NCBI GenBank assembly: GCA_036741355.1
Contig: DAINSK010000008.1
Coordinates: 19,757-83,756 of the forward strand
Direction: 5' to 3'
DNA length: 64,000 nt
DNA from: Chloroflexota bacterium
Lineage (GTDB): Bacteria > Chloroflexota > Dehalococcoidia > CAUJGQ01
The notes below the pieces were generated by a model. The model saw nothing but the letters and a program-made list of their open reading frames with translations. It was not told the DNA's origin and did no database searches. How positions within the stretch are numbered: the first letter of the stretch is position 1; every line of letters starts with the position of its first letter. Positions 21,507-51,590 of the stretch are shown piece by piece. Made by a program: the position numbers and the translations under genes.

Positions 21507-21511
21507 CCGAA

Positions 21512-25514: not shown

Positions 25515-25551
25515 CCTAACCCCCGGCCCCTTCCCTAAAGGAGGGAAGGGG
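25515..25551. repeat. GC-rich palindromic repeat, copy 3 (variant hairpin)
   Basis: The sequence is cctaacccccgg followed by the hairpin ccccttccct-aaagg-agggaagggg. Its flank is related to copies 1 and 6. Confidence 0.55.
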
Positions 25552-25594
25552 AGCTTATAGTCGGTAGTTGGTGAAGCATTTCGGAGCAGAACCA

Positions 25595-26137
25595 ATGCCA
25601 CGCCTTGAACCTCCGACCCGCGAGGCGCTCTTGCCTGTAGACCAGGCAATTTGGGACGAGATCGTCGGCTCACGCGGCCGGGTAATCGGGCCCTATCTGC
25701 CGCTGATGAAGATGCCAGCGCTGGCGCAACGGGTGGCGGCGCTCGGCGAACAGTTGCGCTTCCATTCATTGCTGCCCGCCGCCGACCGCGAATTGGCGAT
25801 CCTGGCGACCGGCCGGGAGGTCGGCGCGAAGTTTGAGTGGGCCGCGCACGAACCAATCGCCCGTCGCGAGGGAACGCGATCGGAAGCAATCGAAGCCGTT
25901 CGGAGCCAGGGTCCGCTCGATGCCCTGAGCGGCCGCGAACGATTGATCATCACCGTCGTCCGCTCGCTCTACCGAGATCACACCCTCTCCGATACGCTGC
26001 ATGCCCAGGCGATTAAAGACCTCGGCGAGCAGACGCTTGTAGAGCTGGTAACGCTCACCGGGTTCTACGGCCTGATCGGTTTTGTACTCAACGCGTTCGA
26101 GATACCGCTTCCTGAAGGGGCACAGCAGCCGTTCTGA
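25595..26137 (+). CDS. carboxymuconolactone decarboxylase (AhpD-like) family protein
   Basis: Weak CMD-family resemblance (EWAAHEPIARREG; an all-helical profile). Confidence 0.5.
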   Translation: MPRLEPPTREALLPVDQAIWDEIVGSRGRVIGPYLPLMKMPALAQRVAALGEQLRFHSLLPAADRELAILATGREVGAKFEWAAHEPIARREGTRSEAIEAVRSQGPLDALSGRERLIITVVRSLYRDHTLSDTLHAQAIKDLGEQTLVELVTLTGFYGLIGFVLNAFEIPLPEGAQQPF

Positions 26138-26202
26138 CTATTTTCTTGAATCCGGGAATGACGGCTTCCGAAGAGACAATCCTAAGAACCTTGGAGTAAA
26201 AG

Positions 26203-26760
26203 ATGCTTCTGCGGATCCCCGCCGCCCTTGCGATCCTCGTCGTCGTCCTCGTTTTCAGCGGACCTCCTGCGCTGAACGCTCAGCCCGCACCAGCCAGGAG
26301 CCCGGCAGCAAGAGCGCTGAGCCAGTACATTGCGCCGAACTATCCGCCGAGCCTGTACGACGAGGTAACCAACACAGATTATGTCGAAGCTCGGCCGGAA
26401 CTCGCGGACGCCGTGGCTGCCTTCGGGCGAATTACCGGCGTCGAGACGGATCACCTGAACCTGGGCGACGGCCATTCCAACGGCGTGCTCACGATCGACC
26501 TTTTCGATTCTCCCGCGGATGCCTGGGCTTTCGGACAAGCGTTTGTCGCGGCTGAAGACCCCGGCGAAGACCTGGCCGACCTTAGTCTGGGGGACGCTAG
26601 TCTCGGCAGCGATACGTTTATTGTTTTTCAACGGGGACGCGTCTTCGTCACGCTCGTTACGATCTCGGAGTACCAGGCGGGCAGTATCTACACGACAGAC
26701 CTGTTGAACATCGCGGGCCTCGTGGACGCCCGCATCGTCGCAGCGCCACCAGGGGATTAG
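26203..26760 (+). CDS. secreted hypothetical protein
   Basis: A signal peptide (ALAILVVVLVFSGPPALNAQPAP) is present. No recognisable domain. Confidence 0.45.
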   Translation: MLLRIPAALAILVVVLVFSGPPALNAQPAPARSPAARALSQYIAPNYPPSLYDEVTNTDYVEARPELADAVAAFGRITGVETDHLNLGDGHSNGVLTIDLFDSPADAWAFGQAFVAAEDPGEDLADLSLGDASLGSDTFIVFQRGRVFVTLVTISEYQAGSIYTTDLLNIAGLVDARIVAAPPGD

Positions 26761-26851
26761 ACCAGTTTGCTGTGCGTGGTTCGGGTTGGCAACGTGCGCG
26801 GACGTCCGACGCAGTGGTATTAGATCTGAGCTTAACCTGCCCGAACCGGAG

Positions 26852-27802
26852 CTACTTCAGCGCCGCGTCCACCACGGACCAGTCGACCCGGTCCTTGAGC
26901 AGTTCGGTTATACGCTCGAGCTTGCGCTCGCTGCCGAAGCGCGACTGCTGGAAGATGCCGGCCAGGCTATCAACGGTTGCACGCGTATCGGAAGGGGTGA
27001 GCATCACCGCCACCTCCTCGCTGGAGGCGCGGTCGAGCGTGTAGGGACTCGGCGAAATACCGCCGGTGAGGATCAGGCAGTCGGTATCGGTCGCGAGCGC
27101 CGCGAGCTGCAGATCGGTCTTGTCGCTGCGGGTGATCACTGCTTTGTGACCCCGCCGGGAGAAGTATGCATTACTGGAGTCGGTGGTGATCGGGCCGATC
27201 ATCAGCTCTTCGATGACCTGGTCCTCGGCCTCGTCGCCGAGCAACATCTCGGCCTTCAACGTGTCGGCAAGCTCGCCAATCGTGGGTGAATAGAGCACCC
27301 GGTCTTCCGGGATCGCGACGATCAACGGTAGAGCAGCCTCGTCCATCGCCGACTCCGCCGCCAGCATGAACCCCTGCGGCACCGCCGTGATGACCAGACC
27401 GAGAAAGCGCGGGCCAAGGTCGAGCGCCATGTTTTGCAGTTGAAGCGTGGCGTCCTCATTCGGCACGCCACGGTGCACGACGATAACGGCGGCATCCAGC
27501 GTTGATGCCGGAGCATTCGCGCCGGCGCCTGCGGGTGCCTCTATGACGGCAAAGCCGTCTTCGGCAAGCTGCGCGACGGAGGCCTCGGCGCCGTCCAGCG
27601 GTAGAGGGAGTCCACCGCGGCCGCGGGCGCCGGGCAGCGTCGCGAAATAGCCGGCGTCGGCAGTCGCCGCCGAGTCGCCGGTGCCCCCAAGGCGAACCCC
27701 GACGACGCGGCGCCCTTCAAAAGCCAGCCGCTGAACCAGCGCGGCCGCGATAGCGGTTCGCCCCGAGCGCGGCTGCAATGAGGCGATGAGCAAGGCCCGC
27801 AT
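26852..27802 (-). CDS. DRTGG-domain protein with an N-terminal CobQ/Pta-N-like P-loop-like domain
   Basis: AVITRSDKTDLQLAALATDTDCLILTGG is the DRTGG motif. The N-terminus RALLIASLQPRSGRTAIAAAL resembles the Pta N-terminal / dethiobiotin-synthetase-like fold. Confidence 0.55.
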   Translation of the reverse strand: MRALLIASLQPRSGRTAIAAALVQRLAFEGRRVVGVRLGGTGDSAATADAGYFATLPGARGRGGLPLPLDGAEASVAQLAEDGFAVIEAPAGAGANAPASTLDAAVIVVHRGVPNEDATLQLQNMALDLGPRFLGLVITAVPQGFMLAAESAMDEAALPLIVAIPEDRVLYSPTIGELADTLKAEMLLGDEAEDQVIEELMIGPITTDSSNAYFSRRGHKAVITRSDKTDLQLAALATDTDCLILTGGISPSPYTLDRASSEEVAVMLTPSDTRATVDSLAGIFQQSRFGSERKLERITELLKDRVDWSVVDAALK

Positions 27803-27985
27803 CGCGTGTGACTCCAGCGGCAATCTGCACGGCGCTCCGCGCCGCTGCCCGAAGTATACCAACGCCCCGAATACAGGCTAGCAGCGGGGACGGTCATCAT
27901 ATTACGGGTCCGCCATACTCAAACACCGGATCGCCACCTCGGCCAACCAGCACCACGACTGCCGACTTCCGACTGCCCACCCCGC

Positions 27986-28014
27986 TTGCAGTTGCCCGGC
28001 GGCTTTCCGATAAT
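27986..28014 (+). promoter_or_regulatory. candidate promoter for tRNA-Phe (TTGCAG, 17-nt spacer, GATAAT)
   Basis: A consensus-like -35/-10 pair with a 17-nt spacer, 56 nt upstream of the tRNA 5' end. Confidence 0.35.
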
Positions 28015-28070
28015 AACCGGGCAGCCGGTCGCACCTCGACCGCCCCGCAACGGCGCAACGCCCACCACAC

Positions 28071-28146
28071 GCCAAGGTAGCTCAGTCGGTAGAGCATGCG
28101 ACTGAAAATCGCAGTGTCGGCAGTTCGATTCTGCCCCTTGGCACCA
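28071..28146 (+). tRNA. tRNA-Phe (anticodon GAA)
   Basis: A cloverleaf with acceptor GCCAAGG/CCTTGGC, D-arm GCTC-AGTCGGTA-GAGC, anticodon arm TGCGA-CTGAAAA-TCGCA, T-arm GGCAG-TTCGATT-CTGCC and an encoded CCA. Confidence 0.9.
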
Positions 28147-28404
28147 GGGATCATGCGTGGAATCCGGCCGTTTGGCCAGAAGGGGTAATCTCGGGAGCCG
28201 AAGCGTAGGAGTGTCTGAGTTGCGGACTTCGTGTACCAGGCACCGGCCTCGCGCGGCGACGTTACAGCTGCCGGCAGAGAAGCCGATCACCGCGCGGCTC
28301 GGGGGGCCGCCCCGGCCCTTACGCGCCCGACATCGACGACGGCGTGAAGTCCGTCCCTTCCAGGAGTCGGGTCTGCTGGCGATGAAGCAGGTGGTCAAGA
28401 AGTG

Positions 28405-28468
28405 GTGAGGGAGGCGCGGCCCTCACCCCTCTTATCCCCTCTCCCAATACTGGGCGAGGGGACGATCC
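28405..28468. repeat. GC-rich palindromic repeat, copy 4
   Basis: A gtgaggg...ccctcac mini-hairpin, then the hairpin cccctctccca-atac-tgggcgagggg (one G:T position), then acgatcc. Confidence 0.6.
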
Positions 28469-28570
28469 AGCACGGGGACGACGCACCCCGTGGAACGGCT
28501 CGAACGGCTGTCGAGCGCCTAACCGCGGCTGTCCGGAATGCCAATAGCGCCCGGAGTCGGCAACCAGAGA

Positions 28571-28620
28571 CCGCCTCCCTCGCCCAGGATTGGGAGAGGG
28601 AGGACGGGAGCGTGAGGGCC
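28571..28620. repeat. GC-rich palindromic repeat, copy 5 (inverted orientation relative to copy 4)
   Basis: The hairpin cctccctcgccca-ggat-tgggagagggagg followed by ...cgtgagggcc. Its reverse complement matches copy 4, including the ggccctcac flank. Confidence 0.6.
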
Positions 28621-28652
28621 GTACGGTGCTACCGTAAAGTAGATGAGAACGG

Positions 28653-29027
28653 GTGGGTAAAGGAACTAGGGGACGCGGCGTGGTATCGAGCGGGGTAAAA
28701 GTAGTCGTAGAGCCGTCGGAGGGGCCGCTGGCGGAAGCGGTGCGCCGGCTGGTCGATCTGTTCCGGCCGGAGCGGATCTACCTGTTCGGCTCGCAGGCGC
28801 GCGGCGACGCGACCGAAGACAGCGACTACGATCTGATGGTCGTCGTACCCTCTGATGACGAGCCACGCTACCGCCGGGCCCAACGCGCGTACGGCGTTCT
28901 CTACGAAGTCGATCTGCCGGTCGACGTCCTGGTGCTCACGCACGACGAATTCGAACGACAAGCGCCGGTCGTCGCCTCACTCCCCGCAACGGTGCTGCGG
29001 GAGGGGCGGCTACTGTATGCGGACTGA
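28653..29027 (+). CDS. nucleotidyltransferase-domain protein (MNT-type, antitoxin-like)
   Basis: LFGSQARGDATEDSDYDLMVVV is the GS-x9-13-DxD polymerase-beta NTase motif. The 5' end is a GTG at 28653; a GTG at 28680 is an alternative. Confidence 0.7.
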   Translation: MGKGTRGRGVVSSGVKVVVEPSEGPLAEAVRRLVDLFRPERIYLFGSQARGDATEDSDYDLMVVVPSDDEPRYRRAQRAYGVLYEVDLPVDVLVLTHDEFERQAPVVASLPATVLREGRLLYAD

Positions 29028-29160
29028 GTACGCGGGCGAGTTTCGCTATCCCGGAGACGAGGACGTTCCTTCGATTGAGTCGACGAATGATGCGCTGGCT
29101 TTTGCCCGTCAGATCGTCCAGTTCGTCACTCTGCGCCTGCCGCCCGAGGCATCGGCGTGA
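29017..29160 (+). pseudogene. truncated HEPN-domain gene (only the C-terminal 47 aa remain)
   Basis: MRTEYAGEFRYPGDEDVPSIESTNDALAFARQIVQFV matches the C-terminal helix region (..RYP...p..eea.eal..A..iv.fv) of HEPN partners of MNT NTases. Its ATG overlaps the NTase stop by 11 nt, as in HEPN/MNT pairs, but about 70 N-terminal residues are missing. Confidence 0.5.
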
Positions 29161-29695
29161 ACCTGGCCGAGCTGCTGGCGGAGGATCTTGTCGTCTGGAT
29201 GAACGCGGTTCCGGACGGCGTGCCAAGGCGCGTGCTGCTCTGGCTGGACCCTGAGTCCACGTTTATACGAATGTTCGCGCCGGTGAGCCGGGCCCTCGCC
29301 GTACAACACGTTCGCCTGCTGCGACTGGAGCCGCCGGGGGGACAGCTCACCAATACGACTTTACCGTGCAGGCGGTGAACCAGAACCCGGCGAAGGAAGG
29401 CGCCGAAACGGCGCTTGCCTTCTTCATCTCGATGGTCTCAGCGCTGCTCGACCGTCGGCCCGACCCGACCACGGTGGTGGTCGGCGAGATGACCGTGCGC
29501 GGGTTGCTGCAGAAGGTCAGCAGCCTGCCCGAGCGCTTGCAATTAGCGTTGGAGGCCGGTGCAAAGCGAATCCTCATACCCAGTGAGAACAAACGCGACA
29601 TCGCCGACGTACCCGACGAAGTACTCAACAAGCTGCAGCCCGTCTTCTACACCGACCCGATGCACGCCGCCATCCGCGCGATGCGGCTCGAGTGA
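29157..29695 (+). pseudogene. Lon-like (S16) protease remnant: frameshifted fragments, with the catalytic Ser replaced
   Basis: The 29366..29695 ORF encodes KEGAETALAFFISMVSALLDRRPDPTTVVVGEMTVRGLL...ALEAGAKRILIPSENKRDIADVPDEVLNKLQPVFYTDPMHAAIRAM. This aligns with the Lon proteolytic domain (KDGPSAGVTMATAL...MTGEITLRG...AHRAGIKTVLIPEENKRDLEEIP) but has E in place of the active-site S and no upstream AAA+ module. The preceding 29157..29378 ORF is in another frame. Confidence 0.55.
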
Positions 29696-29872
29696 CCGAG
29701 TCCAGCACCCGGTTACCAGTTGCCGTGTCACGGAGAATGGGGTTACCAGGATAGACACAGCGAACGATAGTACGTCCAAACCGCTTGACAAATGATCTGA
29801 ATCTCTGAAAATCGGATATGCAACTTTACATGTCGCGCGGTCTCCCACGGACCTCGAGCAAGGTAGCGGGAT

Positions 29873-30226
29873 ATGAGCACTAGACCAGGTGAGCCTCCAA
29901 GCTTTATCACCACACGCATGGGCAAGCGAGGCACGCTCGTCATCCCTGCCGGCTTGCGCCAACAGATTGGGCTTGAAGCGGGCACTCCTGTTGTCGCCGA
30001 GGCACGAGACGGCGGCGTCTTCATTCGCCCCCTGGTCGGACGCGCCATCTCGTCCAAGCGGCGCCGCGCCGTCCTCGATGCGGCCAATCGTGCGTATGCG
30101 GCCCTGCGCGACAATCACAGCGCATGGGCGGCGGAGCAGACTGAGCGTACTGTATGGGATAGTTTTGCCTCGGAGACGCTGCCGCAGGACGTGTGGTCTG
30201 TGGATGACTCCCTCCCAGAGAAATAA
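29873..30226 (+). CDS. AbrB/MazE-like (SpoVT-AbrB swapped-hairpin) antitoxin-like protein, orphan
   Basis: MGKRGTLVIPAGLRQQIGLEAGTPVVAEARDGGVFIRP is a typical looped-hinge-helix DNA-binding fold. No cognate toxin gene lies downstream. Confidence 0.6.
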   Translation: MSTRPGEPPSFITTRMGKRGTLVIPAGLRQQIGLEAGTPVVAEARDGGVFIRPLVGRAISSKRRRAVLDAANRAYAALRDNHSAWAAEQTERTVWDSFASETLPQDVWSVDDSLPEK

Positions 30227-30375
30227 CGCCGCGCCACAACTTTTCCCAACGCGCCCGTCGCTCCAGGAATGAAGTTGTTGCTGGCGAAGGAACCATCGCG
30301 CTCCGGTGCGTGCGCGCGGTATCCTCGTTCGTGATGCCACACCCACGGCGCGTTTCCGGTAAGGATGGCGAGGCA

Positions 30376-30882
30376 ATGAAAGTATTCGACGCGGTGCGCA
30401 CCCTGACCGCTGTCCGGCGCTACACGGACCAATCCATCCCCGCTGACCTGGTGCGCCGCATCATGGAGTCCGCCTGGCTCACCGGCAGTTCCCGCAATGG
30501 CCAGCCGTGGCACTTCATCGCCGTGCAGGACAAAGCGATGCTTCGGCAGTTGGGCAACCTCGCGCGCACCGGGCCGTACATCGCCGACGCGGCGCTCGCC
30601 GTAGTCGTGGTCATGGAGGAGTCCGTATACAACGTGTCCGACGCCAGCCGTGCAGTGCAGTCCATGATGCTGACGGCCTGGGACGAGGGCGTGGCCTCGA
30701 ATTGGGTCGGCTTCGACAATCTGGAGTGGGCCAACGGCGTGCTGGAGATTCCGCCCGAGCTCAAGGTGCTGGCCATCGTACCGTTTGGTTATCCCCAGGT
30801 GCGCCTGGGACGCGGCAAGAAGGACCGCAAGCCATTAGCGGAGGTCGTGAGCAGTGAGCGGTACGGACAACCGTTTACGTAG
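30376..30882 (+). CDS. nitroreductase-family protein
   Basis: SSRNGQPWHFIAVQD is the (S/N)-x-x-N-x-Q-P-W-x-F FMN-binding motif. The C-terminal portion is EGVASNWVGF. Confidence 0.8.
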   Translation: MKVFDAVRTLTAVRRYTDQSIPADLVRRIMESAWLTGSSRNGQPWHFIAVQDKAMLRQLGNLARTGPYIADAALAVVVVMEESVYNVSDASRAVQSMMLTAWDEGVASNWVGFDNLEWANGVLEIPPELKVLAIVPFGYPQVRLGRGKKDRKPLAEVVSSERYGQPFT

Positions 30883-30927
30883 CCGCTGTGGCACCGAACG
30901 CAGCATGGAGACGGCTTTGGGCGGGCG

Positions 30928-31278
30928 TTATGGCAAGGTCGCATCAGCAAACGACCATTCCTTGTCGGTGTAGCGAAAGAGGATCTCCTGCGCCCGTTCC
31001 TCGTCGCTTGCCCGAACGCGAACGACAAGCGTGTTACATTGCCAGATGTTGCGCAGGAACTGGCTGGCGTGCTGGGTTCCCATGTCGGAGAGGATTAAAG
31101 CGTGCGCTTCGATGAGGATCACGTTGGTTGTGACTGACCGGTAGTGGGCATTGATGATATTACCAAGGATAGCACGGGCGTTGTCGTGATTGTCATCGCG
31201 ACGGTTGAGTAGAGCGCCATAGGAAGAGCTGTCATGGAAGACGCGGCGGAAACGAAGTGACCGGGGAAGGGCAACCAT
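30928..31278 (-). CDS. PIN-like toxin (VapC-like) of a type II TA pair
   Basis: 116 aa with a C-terminal ...WSFADATL (a PIN-like terminal Asp). The start is 4 nt from the stop of the upstream small gene. The assignment is tentative. Confidence 0.45.
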   Translation of the reverse strand: MVALPRSLRFRRVFHDSSSYGALLNRRDDNHDNARAILGNIINAHYRSVTTNVILIEAHALILSDMGTQHASQFLRNIWQCNTLVVRVRASDEERAQEILFRYTDKEWSFADATLP

Positions 31279-31281
31279 AGG

Positions 31282-31599
31282 TTATTTCGGGCGGTAGGCG
31301 CGAGCTAAAGCCTCATGCTTCTTGCCAGAGACGCCACCAGGAGTCTTACCCTCGCCGATGCTAATCAACCGAAAGAGCGCGTCATCGGGCTTGAGAATGC
31401 CGGTCTTGCGGCGGGCTCGGGGCTTTTGCGGTTGCCGGTTGAGACGCTCGTCAGCGTCGACTTGCTGCAGCGGAGCGATGGAAAGCGGCTTGCCCTCGAC
31501 ACGAACGACCTGCCGCTTGCCGCTCCTGGCAACGGCTTCAGCAGTCAGCATGAACTCTACCGCTGAAATAGTGTCTGGGCGGCCAGCTTCCCGAGTCAT
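31282..31599 (-). CDS. antitoxin-like small protein (VapB-type partner)
   Basis: 105 aa, basic, encoded immediately upstream of and coupled to the PIN-like gene. There is an AT-rich promoter patch upstream. Confidence 0.45.
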   Translation of the reverse strand: MTREAGRPDTISAVEFMLTAEAVARSGKRQVVRVEGKPLSIAPLQQVDADERLNRQPQKPRARRKTGILKPDDALFRLISIGEGKTPGGVSGKKHEALARAYRPK

Positions 31600-31820
31600 A
31601 TCTGTTTAACCTCGCGAACATATCTTACCAGATCGTTGAAAGTCATTTCTATGCAAGTCGTGATAGAAGCTCATGTACGGCCTTATGGTGTGTGAACCGC
31701 ATATAAAACTCATGAGTCGTCTAGAGGATCTCCAACCGCCCGCCTAGCTGCCCGTCCTTCGCCTCTCCGGTGCGCGCCCTCGTCCTGTACACTGGGCGGA
31801 GTTTATGTCCGGAGGCAGCG

Positions 31821-33920: not shown

Positions 33921-34118
33921 ACCAGGCGCGCGGACATCCCTGAAAGTGGCGCAGTCACGTCGCGTCAAGCGCTGATATCTGGGAGGGCCCTTCCAGCATT
34001 GGGTGCGGCGCCCAGGCGCTCGAAGGCGATCTGGGCCGCCTGAAGCTCCATCTCGGACGCATCGCGCATTGCTGCGTGAGATTAAACTAGCGCATTATCA
34101 ACCACAGGAGGCATATCA

Positions 34119-34403
34119 ATGTACGCGGTAATTCGACGTTACAAGAACCCGAAGCTGATCGGGGCCCTGGAACAACGACGTGCCGAAGTTGAAGCAGTCA
34201 TCCGTCCCGTACCCGGATTTGTAGCGTACTACCTCATCAAGTCGGGTGACGGCGGCACGTCCGTCACGGTGTGCGATGACAAAGCAGGAACTGACGCCTC
34301 AATCCAGCGGGCGGCGGAGTGGATTCGGAGCAACCTCCCAGACGCCGCTGGCGCCCCGCCCGAGGTCACGGAGGGCAACGTGATCCAGGAATTCACCCGG
34401 TAG
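34119..34403 (+). CDS. small ABM/Dabb-like (ferredoxin-fold) protein
   Basis: 94 aa. MYAVIRRYK...GFVAYYLIKSGDGGTSVTVCDDKAGTD fits an antibiotic-biosynthesis-monooxygenase-like fold. Confidence 0.45.
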   Translation: MYAVIRRYKNPKLIGALEQRRAEVEAVIRPVPGFVAYYLIKSGDGGTSVTVCDDKAGTDASIQRAAEWIRSNLPDAAGAPPEVTEGNVIQEFTR

Positions 34404-34472
34404 ACCGCCGGGTTCCGCTCAGGTTGGCATTACTACCAGCAACCGCGCAGCAAACAACGGGTATCCCGCGCT

Positions 34473-34511
34473 AATGGAACAGGCTCGCCATCTCGGCGGG
34501 CCTGTTCCATT
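34473..34511. promoter_or_regulatory. perfect 12-bp inverted repeat (aatggaacaggc / gcctgttccatt) with a 15-nt loop, upstream of the LLM oxidoreductase gene
   Basis: Seen directly in the sequence. No U-tract follows. It could be an operator or an RNA hairpin. Confidence 0.3.
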
Positions 34512-34615
34512 GCCGCGATCCGGCGCGGCGTCCCGTAAGTCTCGTGGTAGCATGGTTCCCGCTACGACGGCGGTCCCGGCCGCAGCCTGACGTCTCCCAA
34601 CGTGGATCGAAGACC

Positions 34616-36440: not shown

Positions 36441-36576
36441 ACGATAGGCTCCAGTCGTTGATGAAGACTAACGCGTCAATAGTAAATCCTTGCGGCGGCG
36501 ACGTGGCCGGGTGCACCCGTGCTCCGTGGCAACAGTACGCTCTGAGCATGTAGCATGGGACGGCCCCGGAGGAGTT

Positions 36577-37686: not shown

Positions 37687-37716
37687 TAGAGAGACGACAC
37701 CATCACCGGCTTCCGG

Positions 37717-40201: not shown

Positions 40202-40252
40202 AGCTCAAGGTGGATATAAATGCGATACTGAATCGCCAGCCAATCTTGAAGT

Positions 40253-40882: not shown

Positions 40883-40934
40883 CGCCTCCCCGTTTTCAGA
40901 CCTTAGATCAGCGAATCTAAACGAGGGACTACCA

Positions 40935-42566: not shown

Positions 42567-42672
42567 GACCGGCGGAGTATCGCACTAACGCCTCCTGTGG
42601 GGGACGCTTGTCCAGCAGGGGACGGCTTCTATGTCGGTTCTGGGGCGTCCGCACGGTGCTGTCGCGGCCATC

Positions 42673-44070: not shown

Positions 44071-44177
44071 TTATGCGACCTCCGCATGCCAAGTAGCTAC
44101 AGATGGGGCGCGCTGAACAAGAGATAGCATAGGACCGCCTGCGATGCGACTGGCTTGAAGCGCTCGGAGTTACCGGC

Positions 44178-44252
44178 GCCCCCTATCTCCCCAGCCCTCT
44201 TTCCCCCAATACTAGGGGCAAGAGGGGCGGAAGGGCACGGGGGTTAGGGGGC
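44178..44252. repeat. GC-rich palindromic repeat, copy 6 (composite)
   Basis: ccctatctccccagccctctttccccc-aatact-aggggcaagagggg, plus an inverted partial copy of the copy-3 flank (cggaagggcacgggggttagggggcc). Confidence 0.55.
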
Positions 44253-44258
44253 CGGATC

Positions 44259-45605
44259 ATGACGCAAACGGCGGGCGTAGAAAGCCACCTCTTCGGGCGT
44301 TCCGCGGCGCGACCGGCACCGCGAGTGACGAGAGCCGAAGGTGTCTGGATCGAGACCGAAGACGGGCGGCGCATACTGGACGGCTCATCGGGTGCGCTGG
44401 TGGCGTCGATCGGGCACGGCGTGACCGAAGTGATCGAGGCGCAGCGGGCACAGGCCGAGTCGGTCAGCTACGTTCACGGCACGCATTTCACCGTCGATGC
44501 ACAGGAGTTGCTCGCCGAGCGGCTGTCCGCACTCGCTCCCGGTGACCTCGACCGCGTATATCCGGTCTCCGGCGGATCGGAAGCCAACGAGTCGGCGATG
44601 AAGCTAGCACGGCAGTACTTCCTCGAAACCGGACGACCGTCCCGTCACAAAGTGATCGCCCGCTGGACCAGCTACCACGGCAACACGCTCGGGGCGCTGT
44701 CGCTGTCCGGCCACGTCGCGCGCCGGCGCCAGTACACGCCGATGCTGTTGGACGAGCCGCACATTCCGCCGTGCTACTGCTACCGCTGCCCCTTCGACCT
44801 CGAATACCCATCGTGCGGCGTCAAGTGCGCCCACGCCCTCGAAGATGAAATCAAGCGCCAGGGACCCGAGTACGTCGCCGCATTCATCGCCGAGCCGATC
44901 GTCGGCGCCGCGGGCGGCGCACTGACGCCGCCACCTGACTACTTCCCGATCATCCGCGCGATCTGCGACCGCTATGAAGTGTTGTTCATCGCCGACGAGG
45001 TGATGACCGGCATCGGGCGGACCGGCAAATCCTTTGCGGTGAACCATTGGAACGTGGTGCCCGACGTCATAACGACCGGCAAGGGAGTCAGCGGCGGCTA
45101 TGCGCCTCTCGCCGCCATGATCGTGCGGCGGCCAATCTACGAAGCGATCGCAAACGGCAGCGGCGCCTTTGTCAACGGCTTTACTTATGGCGGTCACGCG
45201 CCGTCCATGGCTGCCGGCGCTGCCGTGTTGAAATACGTGGCCGACCACGACCTCGTGGCGAACGCTGCTCGCCGCGGCGCGTATCTCGCAGCAAAGCTCG
45301 AGCCCTTGCGCTCGCGTCGGATCGTCGGCGACATCCGCGGCATGGGCCTGATGTGGGGGATCGAGTTCGTCCGCGATCGAGCAACCAAGGCGCCGTTCCC
45401 GCGTTCGCTGCAGATCGCGGAACGCGTCGGCGCTATCGCCTTCGAGCGCGGCCTGATCATCTATCCGGGCTTCGGAAACGCCGATGGCGTCGACGGAGAT
45501 CAGATCCTCATCGGTCCGCCGCTCGTCATCACGGAAGCCGAGATCGACCTGCTCGTCGAGATGCTGACCGCCGCGATTGACGAGGTAGACGCTTCCGTGC
45601 CCTGA
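44259..45605 (+). CDS. class-III (omega) aminotransferase, PLP-dependent
   Basis: SGGSEANESAMKLAR...FIADEVMTGIGRTGKSFA are the PLP-lysine region and the class-III motifs. Confidence 0.88.
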   Translation: MTQTAGVESHLFGRSAARPAPRVTRAEGVWIETEDGRRILDGSSGALVASIGHGVTEVIEAQRAQAESVSYVHGTHFTVDAQELLAERLSALAPGDLDRVYPVSGGSEANESAMKLARQYFLETGRPSRHKVIARWTSYHGNTLGALSLSGHVARRRQYTPMLLDEPHIPPCYCYRCPFDLEYPSCGVKCAHALEDEIKRQGPEYVAAFIAEPIVGAAGGALTPPPDYFPIIRAICDRYEVLFIADEVMTGIGRTGKSFAVNHWNVVPDVITTGKGVSGGYAPLAAMIVRRPIYEAIANGSGAFVNGFTYGGHAPSMAAGAAVLKYVADHDLVANAARRGAYLAAKLEPLRSRRIVGDIRGMGLMWGIEFVRDRATKAPFPRSLQIAERVGAIAFERGLIIYPGFGNADGVDGDQILIGPPLVITEAEIDLLVEMLTAAIDEVDASVP

Positions 45606-45715
45606 CGCAGCCGCACGGCGCTTGCGACGTATGTTGACAAGGGCGTTACACTTTCACAGAATGTACCGGTGCCCCATAGCGGCAATCCTAGAACGAAGTG
45701 TGAAGGGAAGCGGCA

Positions 45716-46849
45716 TTGATATCTCACAGCGCTGGGGTGCCGAAGCGCCTTTTACGTCCCCAGCTTCTGGCCTGCCTGGCGTTTGTGCTGGCGGTTGCCG
45801 CGCTACCTTTCCATCATCGAACCGCACACGCGGATGTCGCATCCGACACGGTCCACTACCGCGCGGGCTGGAACCTTGTGGCCGCACCGACCGGAACCGT
45901 GCTGGAAAAAGCGACCGGGCAGCAGTTCGCATTCGGTCCCGGTTCAAGCGATTACCAGCCGGTCCGCCGCGGTGAGATCATCGCCGGTCGGGCGGTGTTT
46001 GCGTTCTTTCCTCAGGACACCGACCTTAGCCTCGGCCGAACCGCGTCTGAGTTCACCCGCACCATATCTAGGCCGGATCAGTGGACGCTGATTGGCAATC
46101 CAAGTTCGTCTGTGACGCTGCAGATCACCGGCGCTGACGCCGCGCTCGCGTACGACGCAAGTCGCGGCTACTACGCGGTGACGGAACTAGCGCCTGGTCA
46201 GGGCGCCTGGGTAATTTCTCACGGCGGCACTGACATCGAAGTCGGAAAGGCGGCAAACGGATCGCTGTCGGAGAAGGTGCGCAGCCTGCAGGCGGGCCTT
46301 ACGCAGGACGCAACCGACGTATCGAACTTCGCCGCCCTGCCTGCTGTAGCAGATGAGCTGTTAAAAGCGCACGACTACGGCCAAGTGCAACAAGCGATGG
46401 ACGACGTGCGCGCCGCATTCGAGGACGGACTGCGGCTGGAGCACAGCGCGCCGCTCAGCGGGATCACCGCCGTTCAACTCGACGGGTTGGTGCGGGTACG
46501 CGAAGCGCTGGCGCGTGCGCAGGACGCTGTTTCGGCCGGCGATCTCGATAGCGCGAACCGTGCCGTGAACGAAGCACAGGCGGTAGGCCAGGCGTCGGAA
46601 GACGATGGCGTTGCAGTCGCGCGGGCCCGTGGGACCAGCGGATCGCTTCGATTCGCAGGTGCGCTGCTTTCGCTCGTTCAGGACGCGCCCACTCCCGCCA
46701 ACCTTGCCGCGTACGGTGCATTGTGCCTCGCCGCTCTTCCGGCCCTGGGGATGGCGCTGCCGCCGCAGCCGCCCTTTGTCCAGGTAGTCGTAGCAACACT
46801 TACCGGAGCACCGATTCCGCCCGCGGCCGGTGCGTCACCGGCCCCGTAA
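45716..46849 (+). CDS. secreted hypothetical protein with a Pro/Ala-rich C-terminus, terminated by an in-frame TAA
   Basis: A signal peptide (LLACLAFVLAVAALP). The ORF ends ...PIPPAAGASPAP*. The same frame continues open for 117 more codons (46850..47203). Confidence 0.55.
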   Translation: MISHSAGVPKRLLRPQLLACLAFVLAVAALPFHHRTAHADVASDTVHYRAGWNLVAAPTGTVLEKATGQQFAFGPGSSDYQPVRRGEIIAGRAVFAFFPQDTDLSLGRTASEFTRTISRPDQWTLIGNPSSSVTLQITGADAALAYDASRGYYAVTELAPGQGAWVISHGGTDIEVGKAANGSLSEKVRSLQAGLTQDATDVSNFAALPAVADELLKAHDYGQVQQAMDDVRAAFEDGLRLEHSAPLSGITAVQLDGLVRVREALARAQDAVSAGDLDSANRAVNEAQAVGQASEDDGVAVARARGTSGSLRFAGALLSLVQDAPTPANLAAYGALCLAALPALGMALPPQPPFVQVVVATLTGAPIPPAAGASPAP

Positions 46850-47314
46850 GTAACGACGCCTTCGCCGCAGGCAATCGCGCCCGCCGTTCCCGCTGCTCCG
46901 ACCACGCCACCGGTCACATGTGTCAACGGCGGCCTCATTCTTGCGCCGAACGCGGCCCTGGCGGGGGTCGTGACGACCGTGCTCTTTCAGTTCCAGGGGC
47001 TCGATCGCAATTCGCCCTTCAACGCCTTTGTCGGGTCCAGTCGTGCCGTCTTCGGAACGACGGACAATTCCGGCAGCAGTAGCGGCAATCTGGTTGTGCC
47101 GCCACAATCGACCACCGGTACTATCTCAGTCTTCATCGCGACCCATGACCGGTGCGCGCAGGCTCCGTTTACGGTCCTGCCGCCCTCGCGTACCGGCCAG
47201 TAAGGCTCCGCCGATAGCCAGAACCCCTATGTACAGCCAGTGGACCTTCCGCGTCGTCCAGGTTGCCTATTTCAAGCCAACGGTTGATCTTACGCTTCGA
47301 GTTTGTGATAGTTA

Positions 47315-47953
47315 TTGCGACCGACGCGTCGGTCGGTTTTTGGAGGGTCGGCGTTGGCCGAAGAGCAGGTACGCGGGCGCGAGCGCAAACAGCGAATCCT
47401 CGACGCGGGCATTGCCGTCTTCTCTCGGAAGGGCTACCGAGCCTCGGCCGTAGACGACATTGCCGCGGAGTCGGAAACCTCCAAGGGCGGAGTCTACTTC
47501 CACTTCCCGAACAAGGAGTCGATCTTCCTCGCGCTGCTCGAGCAGATGGGCGACATGTTGCTCCGCAAAGTCGAAGAGGCGATGCGCGGCGAGCCCGATC
47601 CGGTCGCGCGCGGCGACGTTGCCCTCTGCACCGTGCTCGAAACGTTTGGCCAGCACCGCTCGCTCGCGCGCTTGTTTCTGGTCGAGGCGATGGGCGCCGG
47701 CCGCGAATTCAACGCCGCCATGTTGGACCAGCACACCCGGTTCGCCGCACTCATCAAGCGTCACCTCGACGACGCAGTATCCCGTAACGCCATACCGCCG
47801 CTCGATGCCGACATCGCAAGCGTGGCCTGGTTCGGGGCGGTCAACGAAGTTACGACTCGCTGGTTGTTCACCGGCCGTCCCGAGCGGCTGGAAGACGTCT
47901 ATCCCACGCTGCGTGTCTTATTGGCGCGAAGCGCAGGCGTCCCTAATCCATAA
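47315..47953 (+). CDS. TetR/AcrR-family transcriptional regulator
   Basis: ILDAGIAVFSRKGYRASAVDDIAAESETSKGGVYFHFPNKESIF is a TetR HTH. The start is a TTG. Confidence 0.85.
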   Translation: MRPTRRSVFGGSALAEEQVRGRERKQRILDAGIAVFSRKGYRASAVDDIAAESETSKGGVYFHFPNKESIFLALLEQMGDMLLRKVEEAMRGEPDPVARGDVALCTVLETFGQHRSLARLFLVEAMGAGREFNAAMLDQHTRFAALIKRHLDDAVSRNAIPPLDADIASVAWFGAVNEVTTRWLFTGRPERLEDVYPTLRVLLARSAGVPNP

Positions 47954-47970
47954 CCATAAGGAGATCCCGG

Positions 47971-49077
47971 ATGTCCCGAGTCGTTCGCCTCTCGGTTCTG
48001 TTGCCGGTCATCGCAATCTCGCTCGCATGCAGCTCGAACGCCAACAAGGCATCCAAGAGCCCGGCCGCCGCGCCGCGATCTGGCTCTCCGGTCGCCTCGT
48101 CTGCGAACGGCGTCGCCCCGGCGTCGCTTACCAAAGTTACTGTGGGTTACATACCGATCCTGATTTATGCACCGTTCTTCGTCGCAATCGATCGCGGCTA
48201 CCTCCGCGATCAGGGCATTCAGGTCGACTTGCAGGCGCTCGCCGGTGGAGCAGACATGTTGACCCAGACCGCCGCGGGCAACTTCGACATCGGCGCGGGG
48301 GGGATCGGCTCGGCGTACTTTAACCTTGCCGCACGGGCGAAGAGCCTCAACCAGCCGCAACCGATGCGTATCGTCGCTCCGTTGCACGCCGAAAAGCCGC
48401 CGCTTGCAACGCCGCTGGTTGTAGGAAAGAAGGCCTTCGACGAAGGGCGAATCAAGACAATCGTCGACCTGAAAGGCAAAAAGGTGGCGATCAACGCGCC
48501 GGGAGCCGCCACCGAATACTGGCTCGAGAAAGCGCTCAACGCGGGAGGTCTGACGTCGAAAGACGTCGAAGTGGTCAACATTCCCTTCCAGAACGTCGCC
48601 GAGGCGCTCGATTCCGGGGCCATTTCGGGAGCCATGCTCGGTGAGCCGTTTGCCACGCAAGGCGTCCACGACGGACAGGTTCACGTGCTGAACAACTCCT
48701 TCCTGGATGGCGACCAGCCCACGGCCGTGTACTACAACAGCGACTGGGCGGCGAAACATCCGCAGCTTGCCGAGGGCTTCATGGTTGCCTATCTGAAGGC
48801 GATACGCGACCTAGAACGCGGCGGCTGGAGGGATCCGGCAACGTTGGCGATCATCGCCAAGTACACCAACCTCCCCACGGATACGATCGCGGCGGCCGCG
48901 CGGCCCTATGGCGATCCGAACGGCACCGTGAACATCGCCTCGCTGCAGAACCAGCAGACCTTTTTCAAACAGCAGGGGCGGCTGACATACGACCAGACGC
49001 TGGACATCCCATCGTTGATCGACTCGAGCTACGCGCAGGCGGCGGTGAAGACCCTTGGAACGTTCGCTCCTCGCTGA
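47971..49077 (+). CDS. ABC transporter substrate-binding lipoprotein (NMT1/SsuA/TauA-like, NitT/TauT family)
   Basis: A lipobox SLACSS and an SBP fold (VTVGYIPILIYAPFFVAIDRGY). Confidence 0.8.
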   Translation: MSRVVRLSVLLPVIAISLACSSNANKASKSPAAAPRSGSPVASSANGVAPASLTKVTVGYIPILIYAPFFVAIDRGYLRDQGIQVDLQALAGGADMLTQTAAGNFDIGAGGIGSAYFNLAARAKSLNQPQPMRIVAPLHAEKPPLATPLVVGKKAFDEGRIKTIVDLKGKKVAINAPGAATEYWLEKALNAGGLTSKDVEVVNIPFQNVAEALDSGAISGAMLGEPFATQGVHDGQVHVLNNSFLDGDQPTAVYYNSDWAAKHPQLAEGFMVAYLKAIRDLERGGWRDPATLAIIAKYTNLPTDTIAAAARPYGDPNGTVNIASLQNQQTFFKQQGRLTYDQTLDIPSLIDSSYAQAAVKTLGTFAPR

Positions 49078-49882
49078 CGCGCCGCCCGCGGCACTGACCG
49101 GCACGGTCAAGGTACGGGTCCGCAACCTGCACAAGCGATACCAGGGCGGCGCGGGAACGATCGAAGCGATCGAATCGCTCGATCTGGATGTTCGCCGTGG
49201 CGAGATCTGCACCGTTGTCGGTCCCAGCGGCTGCGGCAAAAGCACGCTGTTGCGCATCCTCGCGGGGCTCGATCTCCCGTCCGCAGGATCCGCAGAGGTG
49301 CTCGACCGGCAACGGCGTCTTCCGACCGCGACCGTTTTCCAGGGAGTGTCGCTCTTCCCCTGGTCTACCGTCGAGAGTAACGTCGCCTACCCGCTGTGGG
49401 CCGCCGGAGCCGGACGGAAACAACGGCGGCAGGCGGCTCTCTCGGCGCTGACGAGAGTCGGTCTCGAAGGTTTTGCCCGTGCTTATCCCGCGCAGCTCTC
49501 CGAGGGGATGCGCCAGCGGGTTGCGATCGCGCGGGCGCTGGTGGCGGACGCCGACGTGCTGCTCATGGACGAGCCGTTCAGCGCCCTTGATGAGCCGACC
49601 CGGCTGCTATTGCAGGAGGAGTTGCAACAGCTACTCGCGGAAAGCGGACAAACGGTAATCTTCGTCACCCACAGCATCGATGAAGCAGTGCTGCTCGGCG
49701 ACAGGGTGGTCATGCTCAGTGCGAGGCCGGCGCGCCTTCAGGCCGAGTTTGCCGTGCCCTTCGAGCGTCCGCGGCGCTTCGAGCACCTGCGCCGCGATCC
49801 GCGTTTCGGCGAGCTGACCGCGGAGATCTGGGAGCAGCTACGCGGGCAAGTAACGGCGATGGGCGGCTCCGAATGGCACTGA
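49055..49882 (+). CDS. ABC transporter ATP-binding protein (NitT/TauT family)
   Basis: The Walker A is GPSGCGKST, the signature is LSEGMRQRVAIARAL and the Walker B is LLMDEPFSALD. Confidence 0.92.
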   Translation: MERSLLADAPPAALTGTVKVRVRNLHKRYQGGAGTIEAIESLDLDVRRGEICTVVGPSGCGKSTLLRILAGLDLPSAGSAEVLDRQRRLPTATVFQGVSLFPWSTVESNVAYPLWAAGAGRKQRRQAALSALTRVGLEGFARAYPAQLSEGMRQRVAIARALVADADVLLMDEPFSALDEPTRLLLQEELQQLLAESGQTVIFVTHSIDEAVLLGDRVVMLSARPARLQAEFAVPFERPRRFEHLRRDPRFGELTAEIWEQLRGQVTAMGGSEWH

Positions 49883-50640
49883 CCAGACTGCGGGGCTTTG
49901 CGCTCGCCGTTCTCACACCGCTTGCACTTGCAGTAATGTGGGAGATCTTGAGCCGTAGGGCGGTTCTGAACCCGCTCTTCTTCCCACCGCCTAGCACGGT
50001 CGTGCGGTCGTGGGTACGGCTGATCCAGCGAGGCGGACTGCTGACCGACGTCCGCATCAGCACGGCGCGACTCCTCGCCGGGTTCGTGCTCGGTGCGGTA
50101 CCTGGCGTGGCGCTCGGCATGGCCATGGGTTTGTGGTCACCGGTGCGGACGGCTTTCCTTCCCACGGTTACGGCGCTTTACCCGATCCCTCGCATCGCCA
50201 TCCTGCCGCTTGTGCTCGTCGTCTTTGGCATCGGCGAGTCGGGGAAGCTGTTCATGGTCGGCTTCAGCGTCTTTTTCCTGATGCTGCTGGAGACACTCGC
50301 CGGCGTCCGGCAGATAGAGCCGGTGATGCTGGATGTCGCCCGTTCCGTGCGGGCTTCGCGCTGGCGGCAATACCGTTCCGTGGCGCTGCCCGGCGCTCTG
50401 CCTGCGATCTTGTCGGGGGCGCGCATCTCGCTCGGCTTCGCCTTGATCGTAATCGTCGGAACCGAGTTCCTGGCAGCGAATCGCGGTGTTGGGGCGCGTA
50501 TCTGGCAGTCTTACCAGGTGCTCGATATCGATTCGCTCTACGCCGGACTGGCGACCACCGCGCTGATGGGGTGGGCGCTGGCTGCAACGGTGAGCGTCGT
50601 CGAACGGGTCGTCATGCCATGGCGAAGCAGGGCGCGCTGA
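49873..50640 (+). CDS. ABC transporter permease (NitT/TauT family)
   Basis: Six TM helices and an EAA-like loop. It overlaps the ATPase stop by 10 nt. Confidence 0.85.
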   Translation: MALTRLRGFALAVLTPLALAVMWEILSRRAVLNPLFFPPPSTVVRSWVRLIQRGGLLTDVRISTARLLAGFVLGAVPGVALGMAMGLWSPVRTAFLPTVTALYPIPRIAILPLVLVVFGIGESGKLFMVGFSVFFLMLLETLAGVRQIEPVMLDVARSVRASRWRQYRSVALPGALPAILSGARISLGFALIVIVGTEFLAANRGVGARIWQSYQVLDIDSLYAGLATTALMGWALAATVSVVERVVMPWRSRAR

Positions 50641-51551
50641 CTGTGGCCATCGCCGGCACTCCTGTACACACCTGGTATCGCGCCACCCGTCCGCGCACGC
50701 TCAGCGCGTCGGTTGTGCCCATGCTGGCCGGTACCGCGCTGACATTGCACGCGCACTTTCATGTGTTCCGTTTCGTTCTGGCGCTCCTGGGCGCGGTTGC
50801 AATCCAGGCGGCGACCAACATGCTCAACGAGCACTACGATCACGTCCAGGGGCTGGACCTTACGCGCGTGAGACGTCAGGACATGGTGGTGCAGACGGGC
50901 GAGGTTGGCCATCGCACGCTGCTATGGGGCGGCATCGCGATGATGGCCGCGGGTTCTGGGTGCGGGTTAGTGTTGGTCTTTCTGACTGGGCCATCGCTTT
51001 TGGTGCTTGGACTATTGAGCGTCCTGGCGGCGTATGCCTACACTGCCCGGCCGATTGCGTTGGGCTACCGCGCCCTCGGCGAGGCAACCGTATTTATCTT
51101 CATGGGACCCGCCATCGTAATGGGTGCCTACTTCGTTCAGACGGGAGTTTGGTCCGGGCGGGCGTTCCTGCTGTCGGTGCCGATCGGCATGGTGGTCACC
51201 GCCATTCTGCACGTCAACAACGTACGCGACATGGGGGACGACCGCGCAAACGGCAAACGTACGCTCGCCAATCTGCTCGGGCGTCGGATAGCCGGTTACG
51301 AATATGTGCTGCTGACCGTTGGCAGCTATCCGGTGCTCGCCGCGCTGATCGTCACCCGCGTACTGCCCTGGCCATGCCTGATTGCCCTGATCTCGCTCCC
51401 CGTGGCGCTCCGTCTTTCGCGCCTGCTCACCCGAGAATCGGCCGTCCTCGCCCTCGACCGCGTCATGGTCGGCACAGCGCGCCTGAACCTGCGCTTCGGC
51501 CTGTTGATTACCCTCGGGCTGATAGCCGATGCAGTGCGTCAGGGCGGTTGA
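50619..51551 (+). CDS. menA: UbiA-superfamily prenyltransferase, MenA-like (1,4-dihydroxy-2-naphthoate polyprenyltransferase-like)
   Basis: WYRATRPRTLSASVVPMLAGTAL...ATNMLNEHYDHVQGLD (an NDxxD-type motif)...HVNNVRDMGDDRANGKRTLA (the second Asp-rich motif). It overlaps the permease stop by 22 nt. Confidence 0.75.
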   Translation: MAKQGALTVAIAGTPVHTWYRATRPRTLSASVVPMLAGTALTLHAHFHVFRFVLALLGAVAIQAATNMLNEHYDHVQGLDLTRVRRQDMVVQTGEVGHRTLLWGGIAMMAAGSGCGLVLVFLTGPSLLVLGLLSVLAAYAYTARPIALGYRALGEATVFIFMGPAIVMGAYFVQTGVWSGRAFLLSVPIGMVVTAILHVNNVRDMGDDRANGKRTLANLLGRRIAGYEYVLLTVGSYPVLAALIVTRVLPWPCLIALISLPVALRLSRLLTRESAVLALDRVMVGTARLNLRFGLLITLGLIADAVRQGG

Positions 51552-51553
51552 CC

Positions 51554-51590
51554 GCTATCTCTCCCGACCTCTCTTTCCCCGCTATACTTG
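51554..51590. repeat. GC-rich repeat, copy 7 (half element)
   Basis: ctatctctcccgacctctctttccccgctatact is nearly identical to the left half of copy 6 (ctatctccccagccctctttcccccaatact). There is no inverted partner. Confidence 0.45.

Follow-up and report, generated by a model that had tools for sequence, protein, structure and literature searches.

BoxC or PIT element repeats were reportedly described in Escherichia coli by Bachellier et al. in the 1990s and by Hoyne and Maher in 2000. RAYT genes (REP-associated tyrosine transposases) are said, after Nunvar et al. in 2010 and Bertels and Rainey in 2011, to be typically flanked by the repetitive extragenic palindromic (REP) repeats scattered through the genome, and Vsr-fold, free-standing homing endonuclease genes were reportedly described by Dassa et al. 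in 2009. Rickettsia palindromic elements, reportedly described by Ogata et al. in 2000, can sit in frame in protein-coding genes and be translated as an extra peptide; they are not known to carry a gene or to have a cognate enzyme. The E. coli BoxC repeats of the 1990s, or PIT elements of Hoyne and Maher, were renamed TMECO by Holder et al. in 2015, with the pattern 5'-CCCTCNCCC N3-6 GGGNGAGGG N3 GGGNGAGGG (PMC4666352). In that study, E. coli TMECO oligonucleotides folded in vitro into an intrastrand triplex that was stable, by circular dichroism and nuclear magnetic resonance, and the motif marked rearrangement-prone loci. TMECO was counted 3610 times in 262 proteobacterial genomes in one study, and related G/C-rich motifs are common in cyanobacteria. 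Holder et al. never found transposase or mobility genes beside TMECO sites (PMC4666352). Here, we describe repeats of this type in a stretch of 64,000 nucleotides (hereafter the window; positions 19,757 to 83,756 of contig DAINSK010000008.1) from a Chloroflexota bacterium, where two of them bound an inserted unit with a DUF559 gene. We argue that the repeats are probably both the ends of a miniature selfish cassette and what it leaves behind. All coordinates are those of the window, and all features are given on the + strand.

The window holds seven copies of the repeat at five loci, six of them full (c1 to c6) and one a half element (c7). Three members, at 25515-25551, 44178-44252 and 51554-51590, had been named in a preliminary description of the sequence and were present there; four more arms were added by a scan for hairpins with a 5' arm of at least 85% pyrimidine. 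The window contains 8 such pyrimidine-arm hairpins, against a mean of 2.6 in dinucleotide shuffles. The six full copies have stems of 10-15 bp with a homopyrimidine arm and a complementary homopurine arm; to this hairpin, CCCCTCTCC..GGAGAGGGG, all add a third block in mirror symmetry (CCTCACCCC / GGGGTGAGG). Once the copies are turned the same way, the order is CCT(C/A)ACCCC, a short spacer, a CCCCTCTCC-type arm, a loop, a GGAGAGGGG-type arm and often then CGATCC. The block mirrors its neighbouring arm, as in GGAGAGGGGG-atg-GGGGGTGAGG on the G-rich strand, and third-block pairing involves G, with T or A facing A. A mirror third block was found in all six full hairpins (9/10 to 12/12 matches), against 0.35 expected and a maximum of 2 in 20 dinucleotide shuffles. 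Mirror symmetry of the third block exceeded direct symmetry (167 vs 117 of 490 asymmetric arms), a comparison weakened by the self-mirror symmetry of most stems.

Pairwise local alignments of the copies scored 28-34 against a shuffle mean of ~14 (standard deviation (SD) ~2.3, maxima 22-25), which is ~7 SD above the shuffles; the weakest pair, c3 vs c1, merely equalled its best shuffle. Searched with an nhmmer profile of the six full copies, the 64 kb yielded those six alone at E<0.01. No T-run follows the stems, a terminator scan called none of the copies in 17000-29500, and the sequences downstream of c6 and c7 are without T runs; a canonical terminator-like site lies at 21466-21497 in the same window. 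Because the copies are similar beyond composition, the repeat family is real, and we confirmed that the palindromes form one related family of the BoxC/PIT/TMECO intrastrand triplex-motif type. The preliminary description had likewise favored a single family over unrelated GC-rich terminators. At the gathering threshold, Rfam found only a tRNA in the window and in six DUF559 loci, and the motifs matched no RNA family.

Like BoxC/PIT/TMECO, the repeats have a C-rich arm, a loop, a G-rich arm, a short loop and a mirror G-rich block with T or A facing A, built on the core words CCCTCNCCC / GGGNGAGGG / GGGTGAGGG. They are also multi-copy, dispersed and mostly intergenic, have 'palindromic' double versions and are linked to variable loci. 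Set against the literal TMECO pattern, the window copies contain the core words but depart from it as follows: the stem is extended in c1 and c2, giving a 'loop' of more than 6 nt; the second loop of c4 measures 6-7 nt; the stems of c3 and c6 are variants; and second loops span 1-7 nt and not 3. Going by these sequences, the window repeats are relatives of the TMECO motif and not literal matches. The repeat type is thus known; new are the lineage, the variant spacing and the tie to a DUF559 cassette. Unlike the BoxC/PIT/TMECO repeats, those described here have a Chloroflexota (Dehalococcoidia-like) host, and they are linked with a DUF559 gene as well as with an insertion that is documented. 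The assignment of the contig to Chloroflexota, near Dehalococcoidia, comes from homologues of its RpoD. In the searchable literature, which mostly excludes subscription journals, we found nothing that links DUF559 or YcjD to BoxC or triplex-motif repeats.

The inserted unit, of 496 bp (17900-18395), has the order c1-DUF559-c2 and is absent from three relatives. Between its ends lies a YcjD-like DUF559 (PF04480) nuclease pseudogene (18002-18392), identified with Pfam, with PDB 3HRL and with tblastn (18013-18359). The repaired translation matched PF04480 with E 6.7e-30 and 103.6 bits (gathering cut-off 20.6) and PDB 3HRL with E 4e-15. The motif GFKFRRQ..DF.C..ELDG..H, near-invariant among homologues, is complete in it. 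By homology, the open reading frame (ORF) between c1 and c2 is clearly recognizable as a DUF559 or YcjD-like Vsr-fold PD-(D/E)XK nuclease. The coding sequence passes from one DUF559 frame to a second near 18146-18150, where 1 nt is apparently deleted (ATTG-CCGC, where ATTGGCCGC is expected). The frameshift resembles the loss of one G in GGCC and represents either a real pseudogene or an assembly error. The second frame runs through the c2 hairpin and ends at a TGA (18390-18392) in the G-block.

The left terminus of the unit, c1 (17900-17942), begins immediately past the TGA (17897-17899) of an FmdB/Zn_ribbon_8 ORF. It consists of the C-rich third block ACCTCACCCCC (17900-17910), TT and the hairpin CCCCTCTCCATCC-ttgc-GGATGGAGAGGGG (17913-17942), with a third-block mirror match of 11/11 and an nhmmer E of 9e-10. 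The right terminus, c2 (18349-18395), is inverted relative to c1 and consists of the hairpin CCCCCTCTCCATCGC-ttg-GCGATGGAGAGGGGG (18349-18381), ATG and the G-block GGGGGGTGAGGT (18384-18395); its third block matches at 12/13, and it was recovered by the nhmmer profile. The inverted match between c1 and c2 extends over ~55 nt and includes flank, stem and a sub-terminal CGATCCTKG. The DUF559 start is overlapped from just upstream by a G-rich fragment, GGTGAGGGGAAGGGGG (18003-18018), which repeats part of the c1 block in inverted form; the reverse complement of the fragment has CCCCCTTCCCCTC in common with c1. We read this fragment as a putative decayed inner motif, of the kind usually located 30-110 nt upstream of DUF559 elsewhere.

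The 496-bp unit is an insertion between two convergent stop codons. It fits exactly between the TGA of the FmdB-type zinc-ribbon gene and the stop codon of the convergent Lit gene. In relatives with 93% identical RpoD (L083, L084 and L085), the gene order dnaG-rpoD-fmdB-lit is shared and the site is empty: only 8 nt (ggtccagc) lie between the same two stop codons (...gcgggcggTGAggtccagCTAtcttcc...), and in the window these are replaced by 496 nt. Its flanks, 200 nt on each side, share 98% identity with L084. The Lit stop codon is restored by the last base of the unit, the final T of c2 being the first base of that codon (TTA on the + strand, 18395-18397). In the empty allele there is no hairpin motif, only a 12-nt block-like string, so both motifs came with the gene. 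This target string, GGGCGGTGAGGT, is 11/12 identical to the unit's own right end GGGGGGTGAGGT. The junction allows two readings, an imperfect 9-nt duplication (GGGCGGTGA/GGGGGGTGA) or a recombination event at a block-like target that cost 5 nt. The preliminary description had suspected recombination or transposition; mobility or recombination does occur, as at least one unit is genuinely inserted when close relatives are compared. A metagenome scan for a near-identical cassette at other sites gave a best match of 57% identity.

The copies c4 and c5 form an inverted, gene-less doublet of ~200 bp (28420-28618) around a 111-nt spacer (28463-28573); c4 corresponds to c1, and c5 to c2, without a change of orientation. 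The left half, c4 (28420-28462), reads CCCTCACCCC, tcttat and the hairpin CCCCTCTCCC-aatact-GGGCGAGGGG (28435-28462), with a single T.C stem mismatch; its score against c1 is 32 (shuffle mean 14.9), and it has the third block and was found by nhmmer. The right half, c5 (28574-28618), is inverted relative to c4 and reads as the hairpin CCTCCCTCGCCC-aggatt-GGGAGAGGGAGG (28574-28603) followed by the G-block GGGAGCGTGAGGG, with a third-block match of 11/12 and an nhmmer hit. The inverted match between the two halves covers 24-45 nt. Both spacer ends (CGATCC... / ...GGCAACCAGAGACCG) match the inner ends of the DUF559 unit, and the right end corresponds to the DUF559 C-terminal coding sequence. As a single strand, 28414-28626 folds into one long hairpin (-64.6 kcal/mol, z -5.5). 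These similarities suggest that the doublet may be an internally deleted, MITE- or REPIN-like derivative of the DUF559 unit (MITE, miniature inverted-repeat transposable element).

In the surroundings of the doublet, a tRNA gene (28071-28143; Rfam, 72 bits) lies ~280 nt upstream of c4. A mechanical ORF on the minus strand (27919-28398) is probably spurious, as it overlaps the tRNA and has no Pfam match. Directly past the doublet is a small nucleotidyltransferase (NTP_transf_2) ORF (28653-29027), followed by further small ORFs including one with a weak MazE_antitoxin match, which makes this region a toxin-antitoxin-like neighbourhood.

The remaining copies are solo or half elements. The solo motif c3 (25515-25551) follows, at a distance of 16 nt, the TAA of a gene for a double-zinc-ribbon protein and lies upstream of a gene of the CMD family. 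Its layout is a third block CCTAACCCCC, gg and the hairpin CCCCTTCCCT-aaagg-AGGGAAGGGG (25527-25551), with a third-block match of 9/10 and an nhmmer E of 2.7e-5. The composite solo c6 (44178-44252) sits between the divergent starts of an amidohydrolase and an aminotransferase gene. It consists of a third block CCCCTATCTCCCC (44180-44192), ag, the hairpin CCCTCTTTCCCC-caatacta-GGGGCAAGAGGG (44195-44226) and GGGGGTTAGGGGG (44239-44251); the third block matches at 12/12, and the copy was recovered by nhmmer. As had been proposed, c6 is a composite with an inverted flank fragment: GGGGGTTAGGGGG is the c3 block inverted, with 18/20 identity. The half element c7 (51554-51590) begins 3 nt past the TGA (51549-51551) of a UbiA-family gene and comprises a third block CTATCTCTCCC, the pyrimidine arm CCTCTCTTTCCCC and gctatact, without a purine arm. 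Its likeness to the left half of c6, also seen earlier, is borne out by alignment (score 34, shuffle mean 13.7, SD 2.5), and the same sequence is present in a 97% identical relative (L089).

The mosaic sharing of flank modules between copies, as first proposed, is therefore real. The earlier view that all members are intergenic or downstream of genes held for most copies and failed for two, as c2 overlaps the 3' end of the DUF559 pseudogene, which had gone unseen, and c6 lies between divergent gene starts. In L089 (97% identical, covering c7) and in L092 and L094-L096 (>99.7% identical, covering c3-c5), the copies were identical and no empty site was found; the more distant relatives L090, L086 and L088 were insufficiently syntenic for an empty-site comparison. 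An 86-nt indel between the window (52808-52811) and L089 (6157-6242), in the spacer after a FIST gene, is unrelated to the repeat family.

The pairing of DUF559 with the motif was then examined across bacteria. One genome per species was searched with the repaired DUF559, giving 80 loci with 38-51% identity from Bacteroidota, Patescibacteria, Chloroflexota, Pseudomonas, Alpha-, Delta- and Zetaproteobacteria, Acidobacteriota, Cyanobacteria and others. A CCCTCTCC-type hairpin was found near the gene in 77 of these loci, with a density of 4.5/kb at up to 300 nt from the gene vs 0.17/kb in the remaining locus sequence. Within 350 nt, hairpins were present on both sides of the gene in 56 of 80 loci and a mirror third block in 71 of 80; random positions in the same loci gave 7.2%. 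A replicate set of 80 JGI metagenome loci behaved in the same way (76/80; 4.0 vs 0.15/kb; mirror third block in 69/80), with the same orientation bias. Both sets combined, DUF559 was motif-flanked in 153 out of 160 loci.

The layout of these loci is stereotyped. With Ch- denoting a C-block and then a hairpin, and -hG a hairpin and then a G-block, it can be written [Ch- .. -hG] gene [Ch- .. -hG], that is, one inverted doublet upstream and another downstream. The upstream and downstream doublets repeat each other directly, with 89-95% identity in L017. In a minority of loci, the window included, the gene lies inside a single doublet. DUF559 protein clades were found to co-vary with motif (stem) type across taxa, and the CCCCTCCTT..AAGGAGGGG clade joins Bacteroidota, Patescibacteria, Acidobacteriota and Ignavibacteria. 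Separately, 44-nt motif copies were 93-97% identical between one zetaproteobacterial genome and gammaproteobacterial genomes (L044 7895-7938 compared with L062 4938-4981 and L079 1422-1465), reflecting either very strong constraint or horizontal transfer with the cassette.

DUF559 and motif also occur together as tandem cassettes, in L010 (4935-6254, three copies with a 471-nt period), L033 (5373-5543) and L060 (5543-5662), and L063 (5321-6179) has an array of about six tandem doublets. This suggests that amplification proceeds by unequal recombination or by replicative amplification at the motifs. A tblastn search for DUF559 remnants beside distant solo motifs found none at E<1e-4, only the tandem extras in L010, L033 and L060. 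In Pseudomonas, a variable segment of ~3 kb bounded by motif copies (L014, L016 and L034, ~5300-8300) is missing in some species (L008 and L009). A 158-nt indel beside a motif in L050 vs L037 proved not to be a motif copy.

At no fewer than nine loci (L002, L003, L006, L020, L021, L051, L057, L073 and L076), the whole motif-DUF559-motif unit lies in frame and stop-free in a host ORF. In the Pfam assignments, DUF559 falls between domains of the host protein or within them; the hosts include MetH (with Met_synt_B12 split), PriA (immediately ahead of Walker A), HsdR, Type ISP restriction enzymes and a DNA methyltransferase. No Hint domain was found in the in-frame cases. Additional solo motifs in these host proteins are translated as PSPxxGEG-like peptides.

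The E. coli namesake of the nuclease shows the same association. In K-12, the loop of a BoxC-like CCCTCTCCC hairpin contains the stop codon of ycjD (L082 6030-6850), and a 45-nt duplicate of the ycjD 3' end and a full BoxC follow within ~170 nt downstream. The chance expectation for a BoxC beside ycjD is ~0.004, given 23 TMECOs in 4.6 Mb. The segment with ycjD and BoxC is present in 3377 out of 5426 complete E. coli genomes and absent from O157:H7, ST131 and IAI39, which have other genes at the locus. In a sample of 60 genomes, ycjD-less strains mostly had fewer BoxC matches, a trend confounded by phylogroup. We considered whether ycjD-less E. coli could serve as a clean empty site, and this was ruled out, as eefR and RND-pump genes are found there (O157:H7), with no motif.

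We put the probability at roughly 60% that the triplex-motif repeats, in this genome and apparently across bacteria, are end modules and remains of a miniature selfish cassette whose only gene encodes a ~110-aa YcjD-like DUF559 nuclease. What supports this reading is the three-block design, the nuclease gene enclosed by inverted ends, the filled and empty pair with its block-like target, the gene-less doublet and the co-varying association of gene and repeat across phyla, with the tandem cassettes and in-frame insertions as recurrent signs of mobility. In the mechanism we propose, the nuclease would recognise the folded motif or the CCTCACC/GGTGAGG block and nick there, and the cassette would be copied into sites resembling the block by repair or recombination at the nick. 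Loss of the gene would follow, through internal deletion or through recombination of the flanking direct repeats with each other, and would produce doublets, solos and halves; these gene-less leftovers may also be mobilised in trans. Two independent hints come from the literature: DUF559 genes have been reported as enriched among predicted inversion targets (PMC9881135), and deletion of the gene for Caulobacter VsrA, a DUF559 protein, abolished the SOS (DNA-damage) response of cells lacking the ScmA methyltransferase (PMC12907096). A wider possibility has a substantial chance, somewhat below even: BoxC/TMECO repeats might be the ends or footprints of an undescribed class of miniature mobile elements across bacteria, with a DUF559/YcjD nuclease as their sole gene, inserting at block-like sequences, amplifying in tandem, decaying to doublets and solos, and persisting in frame in essential and restriction-modification genes.

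Such a cassette resembles pairs of MITEs and insertion sequences in its terminal inverted repeats, in the contrast of a 496-bp unit with an internally deleted one of 200 bp, and in its insertion polymorphism. It differs from them in lacking a DDE, serine or tyrosine transposase and a clear target-site duplication, its sole ORF being a ~110-aa nuclease (DUF559/MTES_1575-like). The in-frame translated motifs in L002, L006, L021, L051, L057, L073 and L076, though not those in the window, recall Rickettsia palindromic elements. Unlike in those elements, a whole nuclease domain is inserted along with the repeats.

Several observations weigh against a selfish DUF559 cassette. At home, the window DUF559 gene is frameshifted, and no intact copy was found in the ~73 kb of contig examined; given the frameshift, the family may in this genome be decaying or reliant on a copy elsewhere. 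The empty site was found for one unit only, and the other five sites had the same copies in all relatives on hand. A fixed target-site duplication was not consistently seen at 17 other unit boundaries, where inverted repeats frequently extend a few nt further. The loci compared across bacteria were chosen by similarity to this single DUF559 subfamily, and the Pseudomonas cassette occupies one syntenic locus, so that it is not highly mobile everywhere. In E. coli K-12, motifs far outnumber DUF559 genes (23:1), and some ycjD-less strains keep a few BoxC copies.

The filled and empty alleles also bear on an alternative that we regard as unlikely, in which the triplex motifs are pre-existing host repeats that served as the landing site of a homing-endonuclease-like DUF559 gene, the flanking copies being a split or duplicated target and the repeats having spread otherwise. 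The doublet-gene-doublet layout with its 89-95% identical direct repeats resembles a duplicated target, and the window target is 11/12 identical to the G-block; yet the empty site holds only that 12-nt block-like string without a hairpin, and both hairpins arrived with the gene. The co-variation of nuclease clades with motif type across phyla would be expected if the two travel together, and the gene-less doublet has sub-terminal sequence in common with the cassette interior, both of which speak against a mere landing site. Vsr-fold (EDxHD) homing endonucleases do exist, for example I-Bth0305I (PMC3239194). As with homing endonuclease genes, a small nuclease of the same fold is the sole gene of a selfish insertion that is present or absent between close relatives. 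Unlike them, the unit has no intron (Rfam) or intein and no conserved protein-coding homing site, carries long structured inverted termini, leaves gene-less repeats and apparently targets short block-like strings.

It is quite unlikely that the motifs are instead structural or regulatory DNA selected by the host, with a role in replication, transcription, mRNA stability or genome plasticity, and that DUF559 is a nuclease kept beside them by the host for repair or processing. Hard to reconcile with this are the presence or absence of an insertion between two stop codons in genomes that are nearly identical, in-frame insertions in PriA, MetH and restriction-modification genes, the tandem amplification of cassettes, the patchy numbers of ycjD and BoxC among E. 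coli strains, and the pseudogene in the window. A host role would agree with the stability of the TMECO triplex in vitro and its marking of rearrangement-prone loci (PMC4666352), and with the syntenic position of the Pseudomonas cassette. Vsr relatives are repair enzymes, and Caulobacter VsrA, a DUF559 protein, acts on genomic DNA (PMC12907096). The insertion polymorphism, in-frame insertions, tandems, patchiness and pseudogene fit selfish DNA better than a maintained host function.

The preliminary description had suggested a comparison with REP/BIME- or SMAG-type elements and a search for a RAYT-like gene. That the repeats are such elements, moved in trans by a RAYT (Y1/HUH) transposase whose gene lies at another place in the genome, we consider highly improbable. 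What had been called the flank is the mirror third strand of the BoxC/TMECO triplex motif, and the three-block mirror architecture fits BoxC/TMECO and not REP. The repeat-flanked gene is DUF559 and not Y1_Tnp, as in the 153 of 160 motif-flanked loci elsewhere, and no RAYT-like gene (Y1_Tnp) was found among the Pfam-annotated genes of the contig parts looked up; with 100 kb of the genome available, a RAYT may lie farther away. Holder et al. likewise saw no transposase near TMECO sites (PMC4666352). The resemblance that remains is one of form: as in REP/REPIN-RAYT systems, the copies are dispersed, mostly intergenic short palindromes, one inverted doublet folds REPIN-like into a long hairpin, and a small enzyme gene is repeat-flanked. 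In contrast to those systems, the flanked gene encodes a PD-(D/E)XK Vsr-fold protein and not an HUH/Y1 transposase, the repeats have a homopurine/homopyrimidine mirror design with a CCTCACCCC head instead of the conserved 5' GTAG-like head, and the gene-plus-repeat unit is itself inserted, also in frame inside host genes. Finally, unrelated GC-rich intrinsic terminator hairpins alike by composition alone can be dismissed, since the position of several copies just past stop codons (17900, 25515 and 51554) is outweighed by alignment scores far above shuffles, a profile that recovers these copies only, conserved third blocks, the lack of T-runs and terminator calls, a copy between divergent gene starts and, as far as the citation in PMC4666352 conveys it, the finding of Maher's group that PIT elements have no terminator activity.

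One further set of repeats in the window lies at 10691-11338, where three diverged 48-nt direct repeats are spaced ~300 nt apart within a long ORF on the minus strand that has PKD domains. They represent repeats internal to a protein and have nothing to do with the palindrome family.

The origin and spread of BoxC/TMECO have gone unexplained since the 1990s, and DUF559 is a very widespread family of unknown function, whose E. coli member YcjD is uncharacterised. The cross-phylum link and the filled and empty site merge these two puzzles into one question, whether YcjD cuts BoxC and moves the cassette. If the cassette reading is true, DUF559/YcjD would gain a function and the repeats a cognate enzyme, as RAYT is for REP, giving a second repeat-plus-enzyme system beside REP/RAYT on a different nuclease fold. 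The in-frame 'DUF559 domain' in PriA, MetH and restriction enzymes would then be selfish DNA and not real domain architecture, which would bear on genome annotation and on repeat-driven genome plasticity.

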